A stretch of DNA of 60,019 bases, the filler included, from Theionarchaea archaeon (GTDB lineage: Archaea; Methanobacteriota_B; Thermococci; Methanofastidiosales; SZ-28-30): assembly GCA_018992565.1 (NCBI GenBank). It is 4 parts of 4 records of this genome, joined end to end, with 100 filler letters (N's around TTAATTAATTAA, not from the genome) between each part and the next. Parts side by side here need not be neighbours in the genome. Positions count along the whole stretch, not along the records: positions 50,119 to 55,087 come from JACVGW010000128.1; positions 55,188 to 60,019 come from JACVGW010000129.1; 2 more parts are not named here. The stretch is one strand, 5' to 3'. The position numbers are program-made. The first letter of the stretch is position 1. Each line of letters starts with the position of its first letter. Positions 54,001-60,019 of the stretch are shown here, piece by piece.

Positions 54001-57000
54001 TAACATCCCCTGTGTTATATTGAGCACCAGCGATGAGATGAGGACTTTGGAATAATTGTCCATGGAGGTATTTTCTGAATCGCTTTAAAAGGATATCTCA
54101 CGCATGAGGGTTCCCCGGTTGTAGTGGTGGGATGTTGATTGACTTGTGAATGCCTGTACATCTCAAGGTGGAATGAACCAGTTGGATTACCTACTGTGCC
54201 AACAGAATAAATCGCTATATACCATAGTGAACTCTCCAACAGTGGTCAGAGAACTTCCCTGGGGTCAATTCTGTGAGGCAGCTCAAACTGAATACCTTCG
54301 TCCGTCTTATAGTAGAGGAGTCCTGTTCGTATGGTAGTATGAGGGATAACCTTGAAGTTGAAGGTAGTTCTTTCCATTTTGATGAAGCGCATCCGGGTGA
54401 TCAGCTCTGTTCCTCTTTCCAGTTCCACAAACCGTATGACACCATCAGCCAGATCTGAGATGGTAGCGACTGTCTTGGTATCATGAACACCATCCACCAG
54501 CAGCATGAAGTACACACCCCCGTAAATCTGTATGCAGTAGTGCAAATCCTCCAGAAACCTGAGTATCTGGGCCACCTCATTTGTTCTCAAGAGGTATGAC
54601 AGGTTGTCCAGGACGCCCCGGACTTCTCCATTTAAAGTCTTCATCTTGTCTTTCACAAAGATGTCAAGTCTCTTCAGAGTATTTATTCTCCAGAAGGGAT
54701 CATTCTCGAAATCAATCTTCCCTGCAGGGACCAGGTTATGTTCTACTGCGAATTCTTTGAGGCGGGCGCTGTAATCATCAACAAAGGTGAGGCTCCCGGA
54801 TGAACAGTAGTCTTCTACTCGACCGTCGATCCTCTTCATTGCCTGGAGAATCTCCTTTGCAGTCCTCCGTAGTGTGAAGTACACACCATTTGAGCCATTT
54901 GACAGGCCATAACACATGAACTGCTGTGCAAATTCCTCGAATCCGCAGCCAGGGAACCCCTGAATCACAATAAGTGAACCATCAGGGAATCCTCCCCCCA
55001 GAAGATTGTCAAGAATGCGAATACCCGCCGGAAGCAGCTTCATAGTGCTTGTAGAGAGCCCTAACCTTATAAGCTTTGCTCTGTCACNNNNNNNNNNNNN
55101 NNNNNNNNNNNNNNNNNNNNNNNNNNNNNNNTTAATTAATTAANNNNNNNNNNNNNNNNNNNNNNNNNNNNNNNNNNNNNNNNNNNNTCTGCTCCTTTGA
55201 CTAGTTCTTCCAGAGAACTGCAGTATCCTGAATCTCCAGTGACGGCCACTGTTTTATTCTTGAAGGTGATTCTGTACCCTACTGCCGGCATGGGGGAGAG
55301 AACTCCTTGGGCTGTTGAACCTGCATGAACAACGAAAAAGGGTTGTACAACAGCGTTTGAGAGGGTGTAGAGGTGCCTATCCTCAACTATGGTTATTGTC
55401 ATGGGATAGGGGAGGGTATCCTGATAGCAAGTCTTGAATCCTTTAATGACGGCATCTACTTCACACGCTCCAGGGTGGAAAATGTTCAGAGGGGTTTTGT
55501 GGCCTATCATTCGCAGATATCCTAAGAGGGAATGTAACCCACCCATGTGGTCGTAATGGCCATGGGTGATCAAGACGGTATCAAGGGTCTGGAAATCGTA
55601 GGATGCTGTAAGAAGGTCACGAAGGGTTCCATCCCCCACATCGACGAGTATATTGTCCAGGAGAATTTGGGTGGCTATGCCAGCCTGTGAGAATAATACG
55701 GGATCCATAGTACGGTAGTGACTGTGATATTTTAAGGTTGAGGGTAGGATAGGACATTGAATTCATTTCATGAAATGATTTTTGTTGCTTGGAGAACCAT
55801 CCTGAAGAAGACTCTGTCTTGGAACATCCATAGCCCTAGTGCTTGGAGTTGAACATAGATTGAAGCATCGGGTTCATCTCATGGTCTGATTCAAATAAAT
55901 ATTGTGTATCCACGAGCATGCTATCATACCGATCCATTTCGCATTCTCACTTGTTACGTTTCTGCAATAGCGAATTATCTTTCTACAGATATCCTTTCTC
56001 CCGTTCCTCTTCAGTGAGGTACACTACGAACCTTTTGTACCCTCTGTATTGCTATTCAACTTACCATATACAGAATGCGATATACTGGCGAAAACTATAA
56101 AAGGCTGCTCTGCATGAGAAACAGAAACAAGGAGGTGATAGGATGAGCATGAGAGCATTGAATCCCGATAGAGAGAAAGTTGAAGAAAGCTTCACACGAG
56201 CATTCTGTGCAACTCTTCCATCAGAGAAGGAGGTCTCAGAGACATCAAAAGCTTTCTGCGCTACGCTCCCCGGGGAACCTGATGCGAGGGCAATTACCAA
56301 GTCCTTCTGTGCGACTCTCCCTTCTGAGAAAGATATTCGTGCTCGAGCACGCGAAGCCCTTAAATCCATGCTGAAAGAATGAAAGTCCATGAACGTTGAG
56401 GATGGTTATCCCTCTTTTTCTCTTTTATTTATCAGGTGACCCCATGTATGTGAGCAAATACAATATAATCCTGGATGTAGACAACCACACAGAAAAAATA
56501 CTCATTAATCCCCTTTCACAATCCATAGATGTAGTGGATGAAGACGACGAGGTGTGTGCTTTCTTGAAAGGTGCAGGGGCTCTTGAGAATGTGAAAGGTT
56601 CAGATCGAGACTACCTTCTTCAGAGAGGATACCTTTTCAATGAGCCTGAAGAAGAAGAGAACCTTATTCGCGACGTGATCAGAAAGGATGATCGTGAAGA
56701 ATACCCGTGTGACTTCCTATTGTATCCCACCTTTCACTGTAACTTCAGGTGCACATACTGCTTCCAGAGTGAGCTTCCCAAATACTCTTTTATCTCAACT
56801 GACTATGTGAATAAGGCTTTTGAGGCTATAGAATCCATAAGCAGAGACGCAAGAGCTGAATCTCCCCTCCTCTACTTATTCGGGGGAGAACCTCTCCTCA
56901 AGGGGAAGAAGGCTAAAGAAACTATAACATATATACTGCAGCAGGCCTGCAATAGGGGATACAGAACTGCAGTAATCACCAATGGCTCCAATGTACAGTT

Positions 57001-60000
57001 GTATTCCTCTTTACTGAGAAAATATGAAGTAGAGTTCATTCAAATCACGCTGGACGGACCCCAGCACATTCATGATAACCGACGTCTCTATGCTAATGGT
57101 AAAGGAACGTTCAACAATATTAAAAAGGGTATAGAAAGCCTTCTTGGTTCAGATGTAAGAATATTAATCAGAATGAACTTAGATTCGCAAAATATTGATT
57201 ATATACCAGAATTTGCTGACTTCGTGTATGAATCTGGTTGGGACAAAGACAATGTAACAGTATTCGTGGGCCCGTATCGAGACCTCCTGTGCAGGAGTTA
57301 CGAGTATCAATTGCCAGAACACGTGATGCTTGAGAGGATGTTCACCTTTTACCAGGAGAATCCCGCAACTAGAATCATTAAATTGCTGGCATGGCCTGGT
57401 GCAGATTACATCCTGCATTTCCTGTACACGAGAGAGCTTCCCCCGCCGCGGGTGAGTTACTGCATTTCCAGTTATGGAAGGTTTGGGTTTGACGCAGAAG
57501 GATATATGTACGCATGCGGTAATGCTGCAGGGAACAAGGACTATGCAATAGGGAGGTACTACCCAGAGGTCACACTTGATGAAGAGAGGGTACGAATGTG
57601 GAGGAAGCGGAGGGTTGAAACCATTCCTTCTTGCAGAGAATGTGAACTCGCTTTCCTGTGTGGAGGGGGGTGCACGCTCCAGTCTCTCCTGAAGTTCGAT
57701 GGGGAAAAGCCCTTCTGTCCTGAAATTCTTCAAAACTTGAAGGTGGCTGTAACCCATTATTTTGATGAGATTGTAGGTGATTAGATGTATTTCAGTAGAT
57801 TCAATTACGTCTCGGACTATGAGAAGGATGGCCAGAGACTCTTGATGAATTTTTTGAGCCAGTCGTGTGATATTGTTGATGAAGAATCAGCCTCACACTT
57901 TTCCCAGGAGAAGGATGTTTCTACAGAGGAAAGGGAGTATGCGCTCCAGAGAGGATATATTTTCCAGGATGAAGCTGAGGAGTTGATACTGCTCCAGAAG
58001 TTGTATCACTATGAGCTTCAGAATAAGAGAGTCCTCTCTGTGGTTCTCTTGGATACCTTTGATGGGAAGGGATTGAGAGAGGTTCTGAAAGACATGAAGA
58101 ATCGAAATAGTCAATGCGTTCTCTTCACTGAGCATCCATTGGATGATTCATTGCCGTTCGATCACTTTGACAACTTGTTGACACTGCACATTGTCACAAC
58201 TCATGAGAACCTGCGTGCATTTGAACCCTTTTTCATGAAAAACATGGTTTCAAAGGTCTCATTGTTGCTACCCCTATCGGGTTCTATACTCTTTGCTGAA
58301 GAAGTTGAATCACGTGTCGATACTCTGGTGGAATCTGGAACTCTTGTTGAAATCATTCCCAGAGTCCAGGAGAGTGAAGTTGAACTCCTGAGACCCCTGA
58401 TGAAATACTTCATTTACAAGGGATGGCCCTTTCTGGAGAATTTCACCTGCAGCCTGGAACCCAATCCCAATGAAGGATGCATCTTTGGGCGCTGGTATGG
58501 TACCGAGAATCTAGTTCGTCGTATCTTTAGGGAGTATGCTGCATACCCTCAGACAGAATTCTGCAGTATAAAGAACTGGGTGGGAGTGAATCCCATTCAT
58601 TCACTGATCTGGACAGGAAAACCGTCTCCTCCTTCCTTTAATTTCTGTGAAGCATCCAAAGGGCTGACAGCTCTAAAGAGATGGTGTGAAGTTCCCTGCC
58701 CCTACCTGGATTCAGGTAAATTCGAGGCAGAAAATCCATCTGACTGCCAGGTCTGTACTTTTGCTCTCACATGCGGAGGAGGATGCAGGTTGAAGTCAAC
58801 CCAGAAAGCGGAACGGTGTCCCCCAGTAAAAGAACTGATTGAAGCATCTCTCGAATACTATTTTGACGAGTTCCTGCAGCGAATAACCTTTGGTGAGCAG
58901 TATCATGGAGGGATCCAATGAAAATCTCTTTAGTAGTCCCGAATGTGGCAAAACACATCCACGGTGAAACTTTTGAGCCACTTGGTGTCTTGTACATTGC
59001 TTCAGGGCTTTGCACCGAACATGAGGTGCAGATTGTGGACAGTTTCAACAGAAAGCTGAATCTAGAAGAAACAGTGAAAGAAGTACTCTCATTTGAACCT
59101 GATGTCGTGGGAATCAGTATTACCATGAGTCCCACAGCTCTTTTTGGAAAAAAAGTAGCACAAGAAGTGAAGCAGGCATTACATATTCCTGTAATCGTGG
59201 GTGGTACCCATGCTACCTTTGCAGCAGAAGAATTAGCTCTCAATCCGAGTATTGATATTGTGGTTCTGCATGAGGGAGAAGTCACTTTTCAGGAGATTGT
59301 GAACTGCCTGCAGGGGGATATTGCTCTGTCCACTATTAGGGGAATAGCATTTCAGCATGATGGGAACACACTAAAGACACAGATACGGGAACCTCTGAAA
59401 GATCTGGATAGCATTCCTTTCCCTGCACGGCATTTACTCCCGGATCACCGCATATACAGCAGAAACCACATACTGTCAAGCCGGGGCTGTGTCTTCAAGT
59501 GCATTTACTGCGCCTCTTCAGCCATGAATCAGTACCGGTGGAGATCCCGAAGTCCTGAAAATGTTCTGGAGGAAATGGAAATCATGGCTTCAGAGTACTC
59601 TTCTACCTTCTACTTTGCGGATGACAATTTCCCTGTGAACCAGGAGAGGACTCTGACACTCTGCAGAGAGATTGTGGAAACGAACTTGTCGGTAACGTGG
59701 GCGTGTCTATCCCGGATTGAATTCATGGATGATAAGGACTTATTACAGGCCATGGCCCGCGCTGGATGCAGAGAAATCTTTATTGGAGCAGAATCAGGAA
59801 GTGACCCGGTACTCAAGAAATTGAAGAGAACCTATACTGCTGAAGATATAAAGAGAGTGGTGAAGTTGTGTAATGACACAGGTATTTCAACGACAGTCTC
59901 TTTTATTGTTGGGAATCCCTTTGAAACTCTGGAAGACGTCAGAAGAACCTTCGAAGTGGCAGCAGAACTTGACACTCCCAATGTGGCTTTCCACATTTTT

Positions 60001-60019
60001 ACACCCTATATTGGAACTC

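Follow-up and report, generated by a model that had tools for sequence, protein, structure and literature searches.

The closest characterised relatives of the system described here are CteB, CrpC/CrpA and PapB, with no curated family cut-off reached. The SCIFF maturase CteB reportedly sets a Cys-to-Thr precedent for thioether formation on its peptide CteA, and SCIFF loci are likewise not known to have a dedicated protease or exporter. TvgB is said to be a B12-radical SAM enzyme acting on TVGG repeats and TigE an RS-SPASM enzyme acting on TIGSVS repeats, both reportedly yielding cyclopropylglycine. The PapB/freyrasin-type ranthipeptides and the CefB 'Cys-every-fifth' maturases (NF047865, NF038107) involve short repeated Cys motifs, with one radical SAM/SPASM enzyme processing each. 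ApyD, a RiPP C-methyltransferase that targets the beta-carbon of an aromatic residue, is reported to beta-methylate a Tyr and to carry its own RRE (PMC11117315). The report on CrpC/CrpA, a 2026 archaeal example of repeat-core radical SAM RiPPs, describes ranthionine thioethers formed by CrpC (TIGR04463) on a 17-residue Cys repeat in the archaeon Methanococcus voltae, with CrpB as an accessory protein and suspected chaperone (PMC13692751).

Here we describe a cassette of four genes in the window, the whole 60,019-nucleotide stretch of Theionarchaea archaeon DNA that was analysed. Its features and surroundings are as follows.

55188..55708, minus strand: gene for an MBL-fold hydrolase, truncated by the start of the contig (Pfam Lactamase_B_2, 48.4 bits)
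56092..56105, plus strand: putative archaeal BRE/TATA element AAAACTATAAAAGG, about 40 nt ahead of the g02358 start codon (sequence read)
56131..56138, plus strand: Shine-Dalgarno box GGAGGTGA of g02358, 4 nt ahead of the ATG (sequence read, upstream alignment)
56143..56382, plus strand: candidate precursor gene g02358, 79 aa (ORF read, homologue alignment)
56197..56226, plus strand: core 1, R19-E28, with Cys22
56248..56277, plus strand: core 2, K36-E45, with Cys39
56299..56328, plus strand: core 3, K53-E62, with Cys56
56410..56433, plus strand: T-rich stretch in the spacer that separates the peptide gene from the enzyme genes (sequence read)
56444..57784, plus strand: radical SAM/SPASM maturase g02359, 446 aa (Pfam Radical_SAM, 57 bits; NCBIfam; PDB match; Cys columns)
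57785..58921, plus strand: paralog g02360 without the radical SAM cluster, 378 aa (alignment, AlphaFold2, Foldseek)
58918..60018, plus strand: B12-binding radical SAM enzyme g02361, first 367 of about 428 aa, cut at the contig end (Pfam, NCBIfam)

The g02358 product begins with a conserved leader-like N-terminal stretch, M[RK]PL[NT]P...F, continues with three cores and ends in a charged tail. The preliminary description had reported three one-Cys motifs spaced 17 residues apart, which stands (FCATLP at residues 21-26, 38-43 and 55-60; one cysteine per core), and an invariant length of eight, which does not: the strictly invariant run is the six residues FCATLP, within a block of 10 conserved residues, [KR][AS]FCATLP[SG]E. 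FCATLP is unchanged in 36/36 cores from 12 genes, and linkers and tail are variable. Across these cores the motif is written with every possible codon (2/2 for Phe, 2/2 for Cys, 4/4 for Ala, 4/4 for Thr, 6/6 for Leu and 4/4 for Pro). Tandem Repeats Finder detects no DNA-level repeat, and thus the core copies are maintained at the protein level only; a chance origin of the FCATLP repeats is excluded.

The number of cores varies: most genes of the family carry three, that of L012 has five, and three loci (L007, L008 and L009) have an additional 42-aa gene with two cores between precursor and maturase. The peptide has no confident fold (Atlas model pLDDT 0.58, pTM 0.25). A repeated search of 5.8e9 proteins returned the same 19 homologues of 72-92 aa as before, and profile searches again gave g02358 no real Pfam or NCBIfam family; the sole row, UspF, is spurious (16.6 bits vs a cut-off of 166). 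The reported absence from the rest of the class also held, with a match in the present genome only among 133 genomes of the class. One other species genome, L002, has the peptide family.

The order peptide, radical SAM/SPASM enzyme, degenerate paralog, B12-radical SAM enzyme was confirmed in the window, there all on one strand, and recurs in 5/5 other loci that reach more than 3 kb downstream (L002, L005, L007, L009 and L011), with the peptide gene always first. The contigs of L006 and L008 reach the maturase start and then end; those of L004, L010 and L012 end too early to enter this count. In L002, the homologues of maturase (46%) and B12 enzyme (56%) are as first described, and a paralog (28%) that had been missed there is also present. 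The maturase gene had been placed about 20 nt downstream of the peptide gene; its ORF opens at TTG 56396, homologues conserve instead the start at ATG 56444, which has an AGGTGA box of its own, and the gap is thus 61 nt. The first base of the paralog directly follows the maturase stop codon. The end of the paralog and the beginning of the B12 gene share 4 nt (ATGA), an overlap of equal length being present in 6/6 loci.

Upstream of the peptide gene, the reported Shine-Dalgarno box is in place, and 7/8 aligned upstream regions of archaeal-type loci show a T(T/A)TAAAA box at equal distance, then GGAGGTG. We infer a promoter role for the AAAACTATAAAAGG element. The T-rich spacer may be a partial archaeal terminator. 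The sole matching metatranscriptome contig (312 nt, 56153-56464, 100% identity) covers only the peptide ORF and the spacer that follows it; as a lone contig of low depth, from a library in which DNA could be present, it is a weak hint that the peptide gene is expressed.

We favour, with moderate confidence, the reading that g02358 is the multi-core RiPP-like substrate of two radical enzymes, which the paralog would assist without being catalytic itself. That the peptide is a substrate of the cassette enzymes is, taken alone, likely. The earlier multi-core precursor reading is supported by the conservation of the cassette, the varying core number, the RRE-like domains and the kinship to thioether maturases.

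The maturase comprises an N-terminal RRE-like domain, the radical SAM motif CNFRCTYC and an eight-Cys SPASM region, and a Cys-column alignment shows both the CxxxCxxC and the SPASM cysteines to be present. Its best curated NCBIfam rows are peptide maturases throughout (CefB, TIGR04463, Clo7bot and PapB), all far below cut-off: 139.4 bits vs 600 for CefB, 134.6 vs 525 for TIGR04463 and 117.3 vs 340 for PapB; the SCIFF maturase row gives 80.7 vs 425. The enzyme is thus a member of no curated NCBIfam family, and the chemistry of those families is not transferable to it. Its best PDB sequence match is CteB (5WGG, E 3e-17, residues 65-415); the CteB/CteA system (5WGG/5WHY) shares with it the RRE, radical SAM and SPASM architecture.

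Identity between paralog and maturase is 20-24%, in agreement with the 20% first given. The paralog lacks CxxxCxxC in 6/6 sequences; its RRE-like domain, the remnant of a barrel and the SPASM region are retained, with Cys232, 288, 305, 321, 324, 330, 334 and 345 invariant in 27/27 sequences; its family counts 30 proteins among 5.8e9. The AlphaFold2 model (pLDDT 84.5) has a radical SAM/SPASM fold, and its best Foldseek matches are anSME, first, then CteB, SuiB and TigE. An eighth conserved SPASM Cys, found in 11/12 maturase and paralog sequences, may point to auxiliary clusters that are fully ligated, as in anSME, unlike CteB with its reportedly open site for Cys binding.

The N-terminal domain common to both SPASM proteins is modelled as three strands then three helices (pLDDT 92.3). 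All of its best 15 VIA-align rows are RRE-bearing RiPP proteins, led by TigE (Z 6.2, rmsd 3.8, 82 aligned) and including TbiB1 (Z 6.1) and PqqD (Z 3.8). The models suggest that each SPASM protein carries a peptide-binding fold that is RRE-like; the matches to known folds are only of middling quality (Z no higher than 6.2, best Foldseek E 0.02), and a PqqD-type domain is not among the Pfam results.

In the proposed mechanism, the leader M[RK]PL[NT]P...F would dock on the RRE-like domain of the radical SAM/SPASM enzyme, which would then act once per core, at or beside the single Cys. The likeliest reaction would form a small thioether within the core, linking the Cys sulfur with a carbon of an invariant neighbour, Thr at +2 being the first-choice acceptor, and we assign the Cys chemistry as a thioether only tentatively. 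All 36 cores lack the canonical acidic or amide acceptor at +3 or +4 from Cys, having Leu at +3 and Pro at +4, and the CX3D motif, reportedly the acceptor motif of PapB, is absent; Glu at +6 from Cys (+7 from Phe) occurs in just 28/36. An acidic or amide residue at +3 or +4 is the usual ranthipeptide acceptor, as in C-X-X-Q/D of CrpA (PMC13692751), in contrast to FCATLP here.

The missing acceptor would fit a substrate modified in another way, by a C-C cross-link, cyclopropanation as with TigE, formylglycine formation as with anSME, or epimerisation, a reading that we consider unlikely. TigE, reportedly an RS-SPASM enzyme for repeat-motif peptides (PMC10878394), is the top VIA-align match of the RRE-like domain, and among the matches of the paralog model it takes rank 11; anSME tops the paralog's Foldseek matches and is the best PDB match of a joint profile (E 3.9e-8), and the eighth SPASM Cys is as in anSME. 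However, Cys is the one invariant reactive residue of the cores, and the maturase scores 117-139 bits against the Cys-thioether maturases CefB, TIGR04463 and PapB, with CteB as its best PDB match, vs 66.5 bits for anSME. The formylglycine option is further opposed by FCATLPSE, which lacks the sulfatase motif C/S-x-P/A-x-R.

In the favoured reading, the B12-radical SAM enzyme would then C-methylate each core, or perform a related cobalamin-dependent alkylation; methylation of the peptide by this enzyme seems somewhat probable. Its remainder lies at G000:C67:1-287, the contigs C132 and C67 being joined by an exact 99-nt overlap. Pfam assigns it a B12-binding domain (78.7 bits) and Radical_SAM (92.7 bits), and it begins directly with the B12-binding domain, with no RRE. 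ApyD is its best NCBIfam row at 162 bits vs a cut-off of 750, which makes it a non-member; the ApyD model has 645 positions, and ApyD itself reportedly has an RRE. As noted, ApyD acts on an aromatic residue, and the Phe before the core Cys is invariant here. The paralog, which is unable to cleave SAM and has kept its RRE-like domain as well as the two auxiliary Fe-S sites, would be a non-catalytic partner that most plausibly presents the peptide to the B12 enzyme, an adaptor role that we regard as doubtful.

It is improbable that the small protein is instead a partner, carrier or regulator of enzymes whose target is a lipid, sugar, cofactor or other protein. The same genome has 22 B12-radical SAM matches, many within a glycan-type, glycosyltransferase-rich island, which means that in this genome such enzymes are not specific to peptides; further rows of g02361 are the lipid and tetrapyrrole enzymes BchE (159 bits), HpnJ (156) and a ladderane-type lipid enzyme (130), and no recurring protease or exporter/transporter stands beside the cassette across the loci compared. 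Against this, two to five repeats of an invariant six-residue motif without a stable predicted fold are unexpected in a partner, both SPASM proteins have an RRE-like domain, and no further gene accompanies the cassette from host to host, archaeal or bacterial.

Since the cassette lacks a dedicated protease or exporter, the product of the favoured pathway probably remains inside the cell as a small modified protein or undergoes trimming by housekeeping proteases. Lys/Arg stands two residues ahead of Phe (three ahead of Cys) in 34/36 cores, and Glu-Lys/Arg is often C-terminal to FCATLP. These possible cleavage sites, the higher yield per translation from several identical cores, and the unrelated hosts of an exporter-free cassette would suit excision of each modified unit as a small molecule or cofactor in the logic of PQQ or mycofactocin, which is nonetheless very improbable, as no locus conserves a peptidase, known peptide-derived cofactor systems bring their own processing enzymes, and nothing nearby suggests a cofactor-dependent enzyme.

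The locus resembles CrpC/CrpA (PMC13692751) in its archaeal host, in a radical SAM/SPASM enzyme with RRE and three clusters, in a substrate made of an N-terminal recognition part and tandem 17-residue Cys repeats, in one cross-link per repeat (here only proposed), and in having an accessory protein (CrpB there) and no known protease or exporter. It differs in its 79-aa substrate with three cores (CrpA, 29 kDa, has 10 repeats) and in two additional proteins, the SPASM paralog devoid of a radical SAM cluster and the B12-radical SAM enzyme. Neither addition occurs in SCIFF, whose peptides have six Cys in one core in contrast to one per repeat here. TvgB/TigE systems share a multi-core precursor with short invariant repeats and a B12-radical SAM or RS-SPASM enzyme, whereas their cores reportedly lack Cys and each system has one enzyme.

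The earlier doubt about binning is removed for both records. Nucleotide synteny with a same-genus genome (86.5%) stops at contig position 586, window position ~55773; the MBL-fold hydrolase gene, whose ortholog in that genus (G032) is 90% identical, is a conserved chromosomal flank outside the cassette, and the cassette occupies a variable island in a chromosome that is genuinely archaeal. It also occurs on two bacterial-type high-GC contigs, and the bacterial-labelled contig carries a PAS-GGDEF-EAL gene alongside it. Flanking genes are unrelated and different at every locus. The best explanation is a self-contained, horizontally mobile cassette of four genes. 'Undescribed', the term first used, fits the family and does not fit the kind of system (PMC13692751): most likely, this is a new peptide family within a kind of modified-peptide system that is already known.

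The cassette lies on a single contig of the Theionarchaea archaeon genome G000 (C132, positions 55188-60019), which carries five genes and is separated from the other window parts by N spacers. The spacer at 55088-55187 consists of N runs flanking the ttaattaattaa linker that joins separate contigs of the window. Since only 55188-60019 represents the contig with the cassette, the genes on either side of this spacer are not neighbours in the genome. The five genes are as follows:

55188-55708, minus strand: MBL-fold gene, cut
56143-56382, plus strand: peptide gene, 79 aa, with FCATLP at residues 21-26, 38-43 and 55-60
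56444-57784, plus strand: radical SAM/SPASM maturase gene; the ORF opens at 56396 and the conserved start is the ATG at 56444
57785-58921, plus strand: gene for the maturase paralog
58918-60018, plus strand: B12-binding radical SAM gene, cut

A GGAGGTGA box is located 4 nt 5' of the peptide ATG, and a AAAACTATAAAAGG element about 40 nt 5' of the peptide gene. An Rfam search of 55188-60019 returned no family and no cobalamin riboswitch. C132 overlaps contig C67 of the same genome: its last 99 nt match the first 99 nt of C67 exactly, and the B12 gene ends at C67 position 287, giving a protein of ~428 aa in total, as in the related locus L007.

G032, a genome of the same genus, contains an ortholog of the cut MBL gene at 90% identity, and nucleotide synteny between the two genomes (86.5%) extends to contig position 586 and picks up again at C67:7833. 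Between these ends, G000 has about 12 kb containing the cassette and four or five other genes, and G032 has a different 5.9 kb. The MBL ortholog and the synteny on both sides thus indicate that the contig is part of this archaeal chromosome and that the cassette sits in a variable island. The same G000-specific island harbors an adjacent, minus-strand pair of DUF4350/ABC_transp_aux genes (C67:1768-6893, L028), whose products also contain GIFT-like domains; at this site G032 instead has a 1165-aa CARDB/Ig-repeat surface protein.

The gene order is conserved elsewhere. Searching with the four window proteins by tblastn, we found the order peptide, maturase, paralog and B12 enzyme in all five far-reaching loci (L002, L005, L007, L009 and L011); L006 and L008 break inside the maturase, while L004, L010 and L012 stop before it. 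In the window and all five informative loci, the cassette opens with a peptide gene that has the core Cys, placing a candidate precursor adjacent to the enzymes. The paralog starts directly after the maturase stop. In all six loci its own stop overlaps the start of the B12 enzyme by 4 nt. The flanking genes are different at every cassette locus: a short-chain dehydrogenase and two ~850-aa ABC_transp_aux/DUF4350 proteins in G000; ECF transporter S component, undecaprenyl-diphosphate synthase and histone-deacetylase-type genes at L007; M14 carboxypeptidase and geranylgeranyl reductase at L009; NiFe hydrogenase, cytochrome b and Ser/Thr kinase at L011; and a PAS-GGDEF-EAL protein at L002.

A search of 5.8e9 proteins gave 19 homologs of the peptide. 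In an alignment of 20 sequences, cores 2 and 3 do not vary at any of their six positions, core 1 does not vary at F, L and P, and a degenerate first core occurs only in P0019, the most distant sequence of this alignment. We then compared 36 cores from 12 genes of the window and nine loci, three of which (L004, L005 and L006) share the same peptide. FCATLP is unchanged in all 36, and each of its residues uses all its synonymous codons. Taking Phe as position 0, the surrounding block shows Lys/Arg at -2 (34/36), Ala/Ser at -1 (33/36), Ser/Gly at +6 (36/36) and Glu at +7 (28/36). Tandem Repeats Finder detected no DNA-level repeat. Invariant residues written with all synonymous codons, together with this lack of a DNA repeat, show that the FCATLP repeats are old and maintained by selection on the protein.

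The number of cores varies. L012 encodes a five-core version, and three related loci have an additional precursor gene between the main precursor and the maturase (L007:10565-10693, L008:6451-6579 and L009:3087-3215). The product of this second gene is 42 aa long, with two cores, and lacks the C-terminal tail; the window has no copy of the gene. This two-core peptide, also present as database protein P0060, would be a natural minimal substrate. Cores are spaced by 13, 14, 17 or 18 residues, and the alignment shows a conserved N-terminal stretch, M[RK]PL[NT]P...F, with variable linkers and tail. The Atlas model of the peptide is of low confidence (pLDDT 0.58, pTM 0.25), and an Atlas feature search with the peptide gave no usable match. 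Such an arrangement, in which identical short cores in varying number come after a leader, is that of a multi-core precursor and not of a folded partner protein.

A profile search with the peptide alignment against 1.84e9 representatives returned 14 matches, among which P0014, P0016, P0019 and the 42-aa P0060 are true relatives. Five long proteins (P0050 of 1648 aa, P0052, P0053, P0055 and P0056) carry Cys-less periodic repeats, e.g. FA[AG]TLP, and were rejected as repeat-driven matches; P0051 (2359 aa, 11 stretches) was left out of that rejection. In P0050, P0055 and P0053, Cys-less FA[AG]TLP or F[GS]ITLP motifs recur at 17-34-residue periods and have an "xTLP" periodicity in common with the peptide; these repeats probably belong to beta-helices or fibres and have nothing to do with the cassette. 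SFCARLPSK repeats in P0057 and P0058, and other Cys-containing repeats in P0059, are all of doubtful origin. P0054, a 316-aa protein from one 3.6-kb metagenome contig, consists of a ~130-aa N-terminal domain and about twelve tandem 15-residue F-C-A-x-x-P repeats. Its N-terminal domain resembles GRDP-like/UCP032817-like families (Atlas feature score 0.92) and has no Pfam match at E up to 0.001. P0054 was retained as a lead only: its repeat could be remotely related to the FCATLP core, and F, C, A and P would then be the essential positions. The locus L003 offers only a 12-residue match in a high-GC frame, with no maturase homologs within 20 kb, and was set aside as a chance match, several chance 9-mers being expected in 596 Gb by a rough estimate.

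The maturase has the CxxxCxxC motif as CNFRCTYC in all six orthologs and scores 57 bits against Pfam Radical_SAM (cut-off 29.5). Its predicted SPASM region contains seven invariant Cys (341, 359, 398, 401, 407, 411 and 426) with GGGC, and an extra Cys284 is present in five of the six orthologs. The best NCBIfam rows are peptide maturases, all far under cut-off: CefB NF038107 (139.4 bits vs 600), TIGR04463/CrpC (134.6 vs 525), Clo7bot TIGR04334 (134 vs 600), PapB NF047865 (117.3 vs 340) and SCIFF TIGR03974 (80.7 vs 425), so that the maturase belongs to none of these families. Nor does it qualify as an anSME: TIGR03942 gives 66.5 bits vs 349.45, and FCATLP[SG]E lacks the Arg at +4 of the anSME substrate motif, C/S-x-P/A-x-R. 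The closest solved relative is CteB (5WGG, E 3e-17). The orthologs form 31 clusters at 46% identity or more. Beyond these, identity falls sharply to at most 38% across a large radical SAM/SPASM family that has no name and gives 2125 matches at E up to 1e-20.

The maturase and the paralog share an N-terminal domain. An AlphaFold2 model of their first 85 residues, folded from 12 sequences, has a pLDDT of 92.3 and shows three strands followed by three helices. No Foldseek match to this domain reached E up to 0.001 (best E 0.023), and 10 of the 11 top Foldseek rows listed (ranks 1-11 and 13) are RRE-bearing RiPP proteins. So are all the top 15 VIA-align rows, though with Z of just 3.8-6.2 (TigE 6.2, TbiB1 6.1, McbB 5.8, MibB 5.5, lasso B1 5.0, PbtF RRE 4.3 and PqqD 3.8). 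Pfam identified no PqqD domain in the N-terminal region, and no PDB chain matched it at sequence level. From these fold comparisons, we consider with moderate confidence that the predicted domain is RRE-like.

The B12 enzyme combines an N-terminal B12-binding domain (PF02310, 78.7 bits vs cut-off 32.1, residues 18-127) with a radical SAM domain (PF04055, 92.7 bits vs cut-off 29.5) containing CVFKCIYC, the composition of a class B (cobalamin-dependent) radical SAM enzyme. It starts directly with the B12-binding domain and has no RRE-like N-terminal domain. All named equivalogs fall under cut-off (ApyD, the best row, 162 vs 750 bits; BchE 158.9 vs 481; HpnJ 156 vs 578), so the reaction type, methyl transfer to the peptide, is inferred. 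ApyD, itself equipped with an RRE, is described as a B12-radical SAM enzyme whose reaction is the beta-methylation of a RiPP tyrosine (PMC11117315). A search of G000 with the B12 enzyme of the cassette gives 22 matches. One region, C49:6500-30500 (L033 and L034), groups B12-radical SAM genes with two other radical SAM genes, interleaved with genes for glycosyltransferases, an NAD-epimerase, a PIG-L deacetylase, a polysaccharide deacetylase, a methyltransferase and an MFS transporter; it looks like a pathway for a heavily radical-methylated glycan or aminoglycoside-like compound.

The paralog has lost the radical SAM motif in all six sequences through a deletion of ~28 residues, and its eight Cys are invariant in 27/27 sequences. 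Its AlphaFold2 model (pLDDT 84.5, pTM 0.85) matched anSME, CteB, SuiB and TigE in Foldseek (E 1e-5 to 6e-4, TM ~0.4-0.5), and a PDB sequence search with the paralog alone gave no match at E up to 1. The family has only 30 members among 5.8e9 proteins, none of them named. The window paralog is 28% identical to that of L002 and 24% identical to the maturase, so the duplication is older than the spread of the cassette. TIGRFAMs may include a "SPASM-only" partner protein of GeoRSP; a literature search for inactive SPASM paralogs, pseudoenzymes or the GeoRSP partner found no paper that combined three or more of its terms.

The paralog cannot start radical chemistry, yet it is strongly constrained and translationally coupled to a B12 enzyme without an RRE. 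A role as an adaptor or presenting protein for the B12 enzyme is a tentative possibility. Complex prediction with the paralog and the peptide, run without controls, scored 0.01 and 0.00 vs a mark of 0.32, which speaks neither for nor against such a complex. More speculatively, and rather improbably in our view, the paralog could be a new kind of RiPP accessory: a pseudo-radical-SAM protein keeping only the RRE and two SPASM Fe-S clusters, which would act as an obligate presenting subunit, possibly clamp the core Cys on an auxiliary cluster and hand each core to a B12-radical SAM enzyme without its own peptide-binding domain. The product would then stay inside the cell as a small protein with modified repeats, serving a function common to anaerobic Archaea and Bacteria, and would not be a secreted antibiotic.

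The data fit a RiPP-like pathway. In the proposed mechanism, the leader would dock on the RRE-like domain, radical chemistry would take place at every one-Cys core, and a second, cobalamin-dependent radical step would follow. Our best guess for the core modification is a thioether, because the close named relatives are all makers of Cys thioethers, CrpC offers a precedent and Cys is the sole reactive invariant residue. CrpC (TIGR04463) is reported to make Cys thioethers on a 17-residue repeat in an archaeon (PMC13692751). As for candidate acceptors, counting from Cys, positions +3 and +4 hold no Asp, Glu, Asn or Gln, and position +2 is an invariant Thr. A Cys-to-Thr link has a precedent in CteB. 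No protease or exporter recurs across the flanks of the cassette loci, and the product may therefore stay a modified small protein. SCIFF peptides are likewise suspected to stay modified small proteins. The same is suspected of CrpA (PMC13692751).

Among 133 genomes of the class, 99 of them at least 90% complete, the peptide is found only in G000. The nearest relatives are labelled Methanofastidiosia and Theionarchaea, and one Methanosarcina. McrA (PF02249) was absent from G000 at 88% completeness, with control genomes positive, so the host should not be called a methanogen on present evidence; it may be a non-methanogenic member of its order, in line with the Theionarchaea labels of relatives. 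The cassette also has bacterial-type neighbours at L002 (65% GC) and L011 (67% GC). For the GGDEF-EAL gene beside the L002 cassette, 26 matches lie within the genome that carries it; of the 21 genomes searched (G133, of L002's group, and its 20 relatives), 19 contain a match. Of 41 genomes of this group, one has the peptide. Cassette GC tracks host GC everywhere (45, 43, 44, 65 and 67%), so the transfers are old. Near-identical DNA was detected in 19 DNA runs of 7 studies covering marine sediment, estuary, soil and mangrove, 16 of these runs being flagged as possible sources of this DNA.

A TATA-like box stands at the same distance as the AAAACTATAAAAGG element in seven of eight aligned upstream regions of related low-GC loci. 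At the high-GC locus L011 (9881-9915), a sigma-70-like TTGACT-18 nt-TACTTT was noted by eye 5' of the precursor. Judged by these sequence motifs, the cassette appears to be driven by domain-appropriate promoters, sigma-70-like in L011 and TATA-like in the low-GC loci. The sole metatranscriptome contig, from one run, is 312 nt long and 100% identical to 56153-56464. It spans the peptide ORF and the spacer to the first maturase codons, and the absence of the enzyme genes from it is no sign of silence. At low depth, with contigs that cannot rank genes and with DNA carry-over possible, it is a weak hint that the peptide gene is expressed.

The system is of a known kind, a repeat-core radical SAM RiPP. 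"FCATLP" was absent from the literature searched, and the peptide family and its core are undescribed in the libraries and papers searched, though Supplemental Data set 1 of PMC13692751 (related clusters) could list the family. With the supplements of that paper aside, these sources likewise describe neither the conserved cluster-less SPASM paralog nor a SPASM maturase paired with a B12-radical SAM enzyme on a single short motif. Little of the RiPP chemistry of uncultured Archaea has been charted, and it was not until 2026 that a SPASM thioether system was first reported from an archaeon (PMC13692751).

The cassette is a compact and testable four-gene system with a substrate of 79 aa, or even 42 aa, in which two radical enzymes of different classes would act on one short motif. 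As a new invariant core without the usual acceptor residue, FCATLP possibly carries a new cross-link, and the "dead" SPASM paralog could reveal how B12-radical SAM enzymes without an RRE find their peptide substrates. The cassette occurs in both domains with a GC content adapted to the respective host, which suggests that its function has a value of its own and is not tied to methanogenesis.
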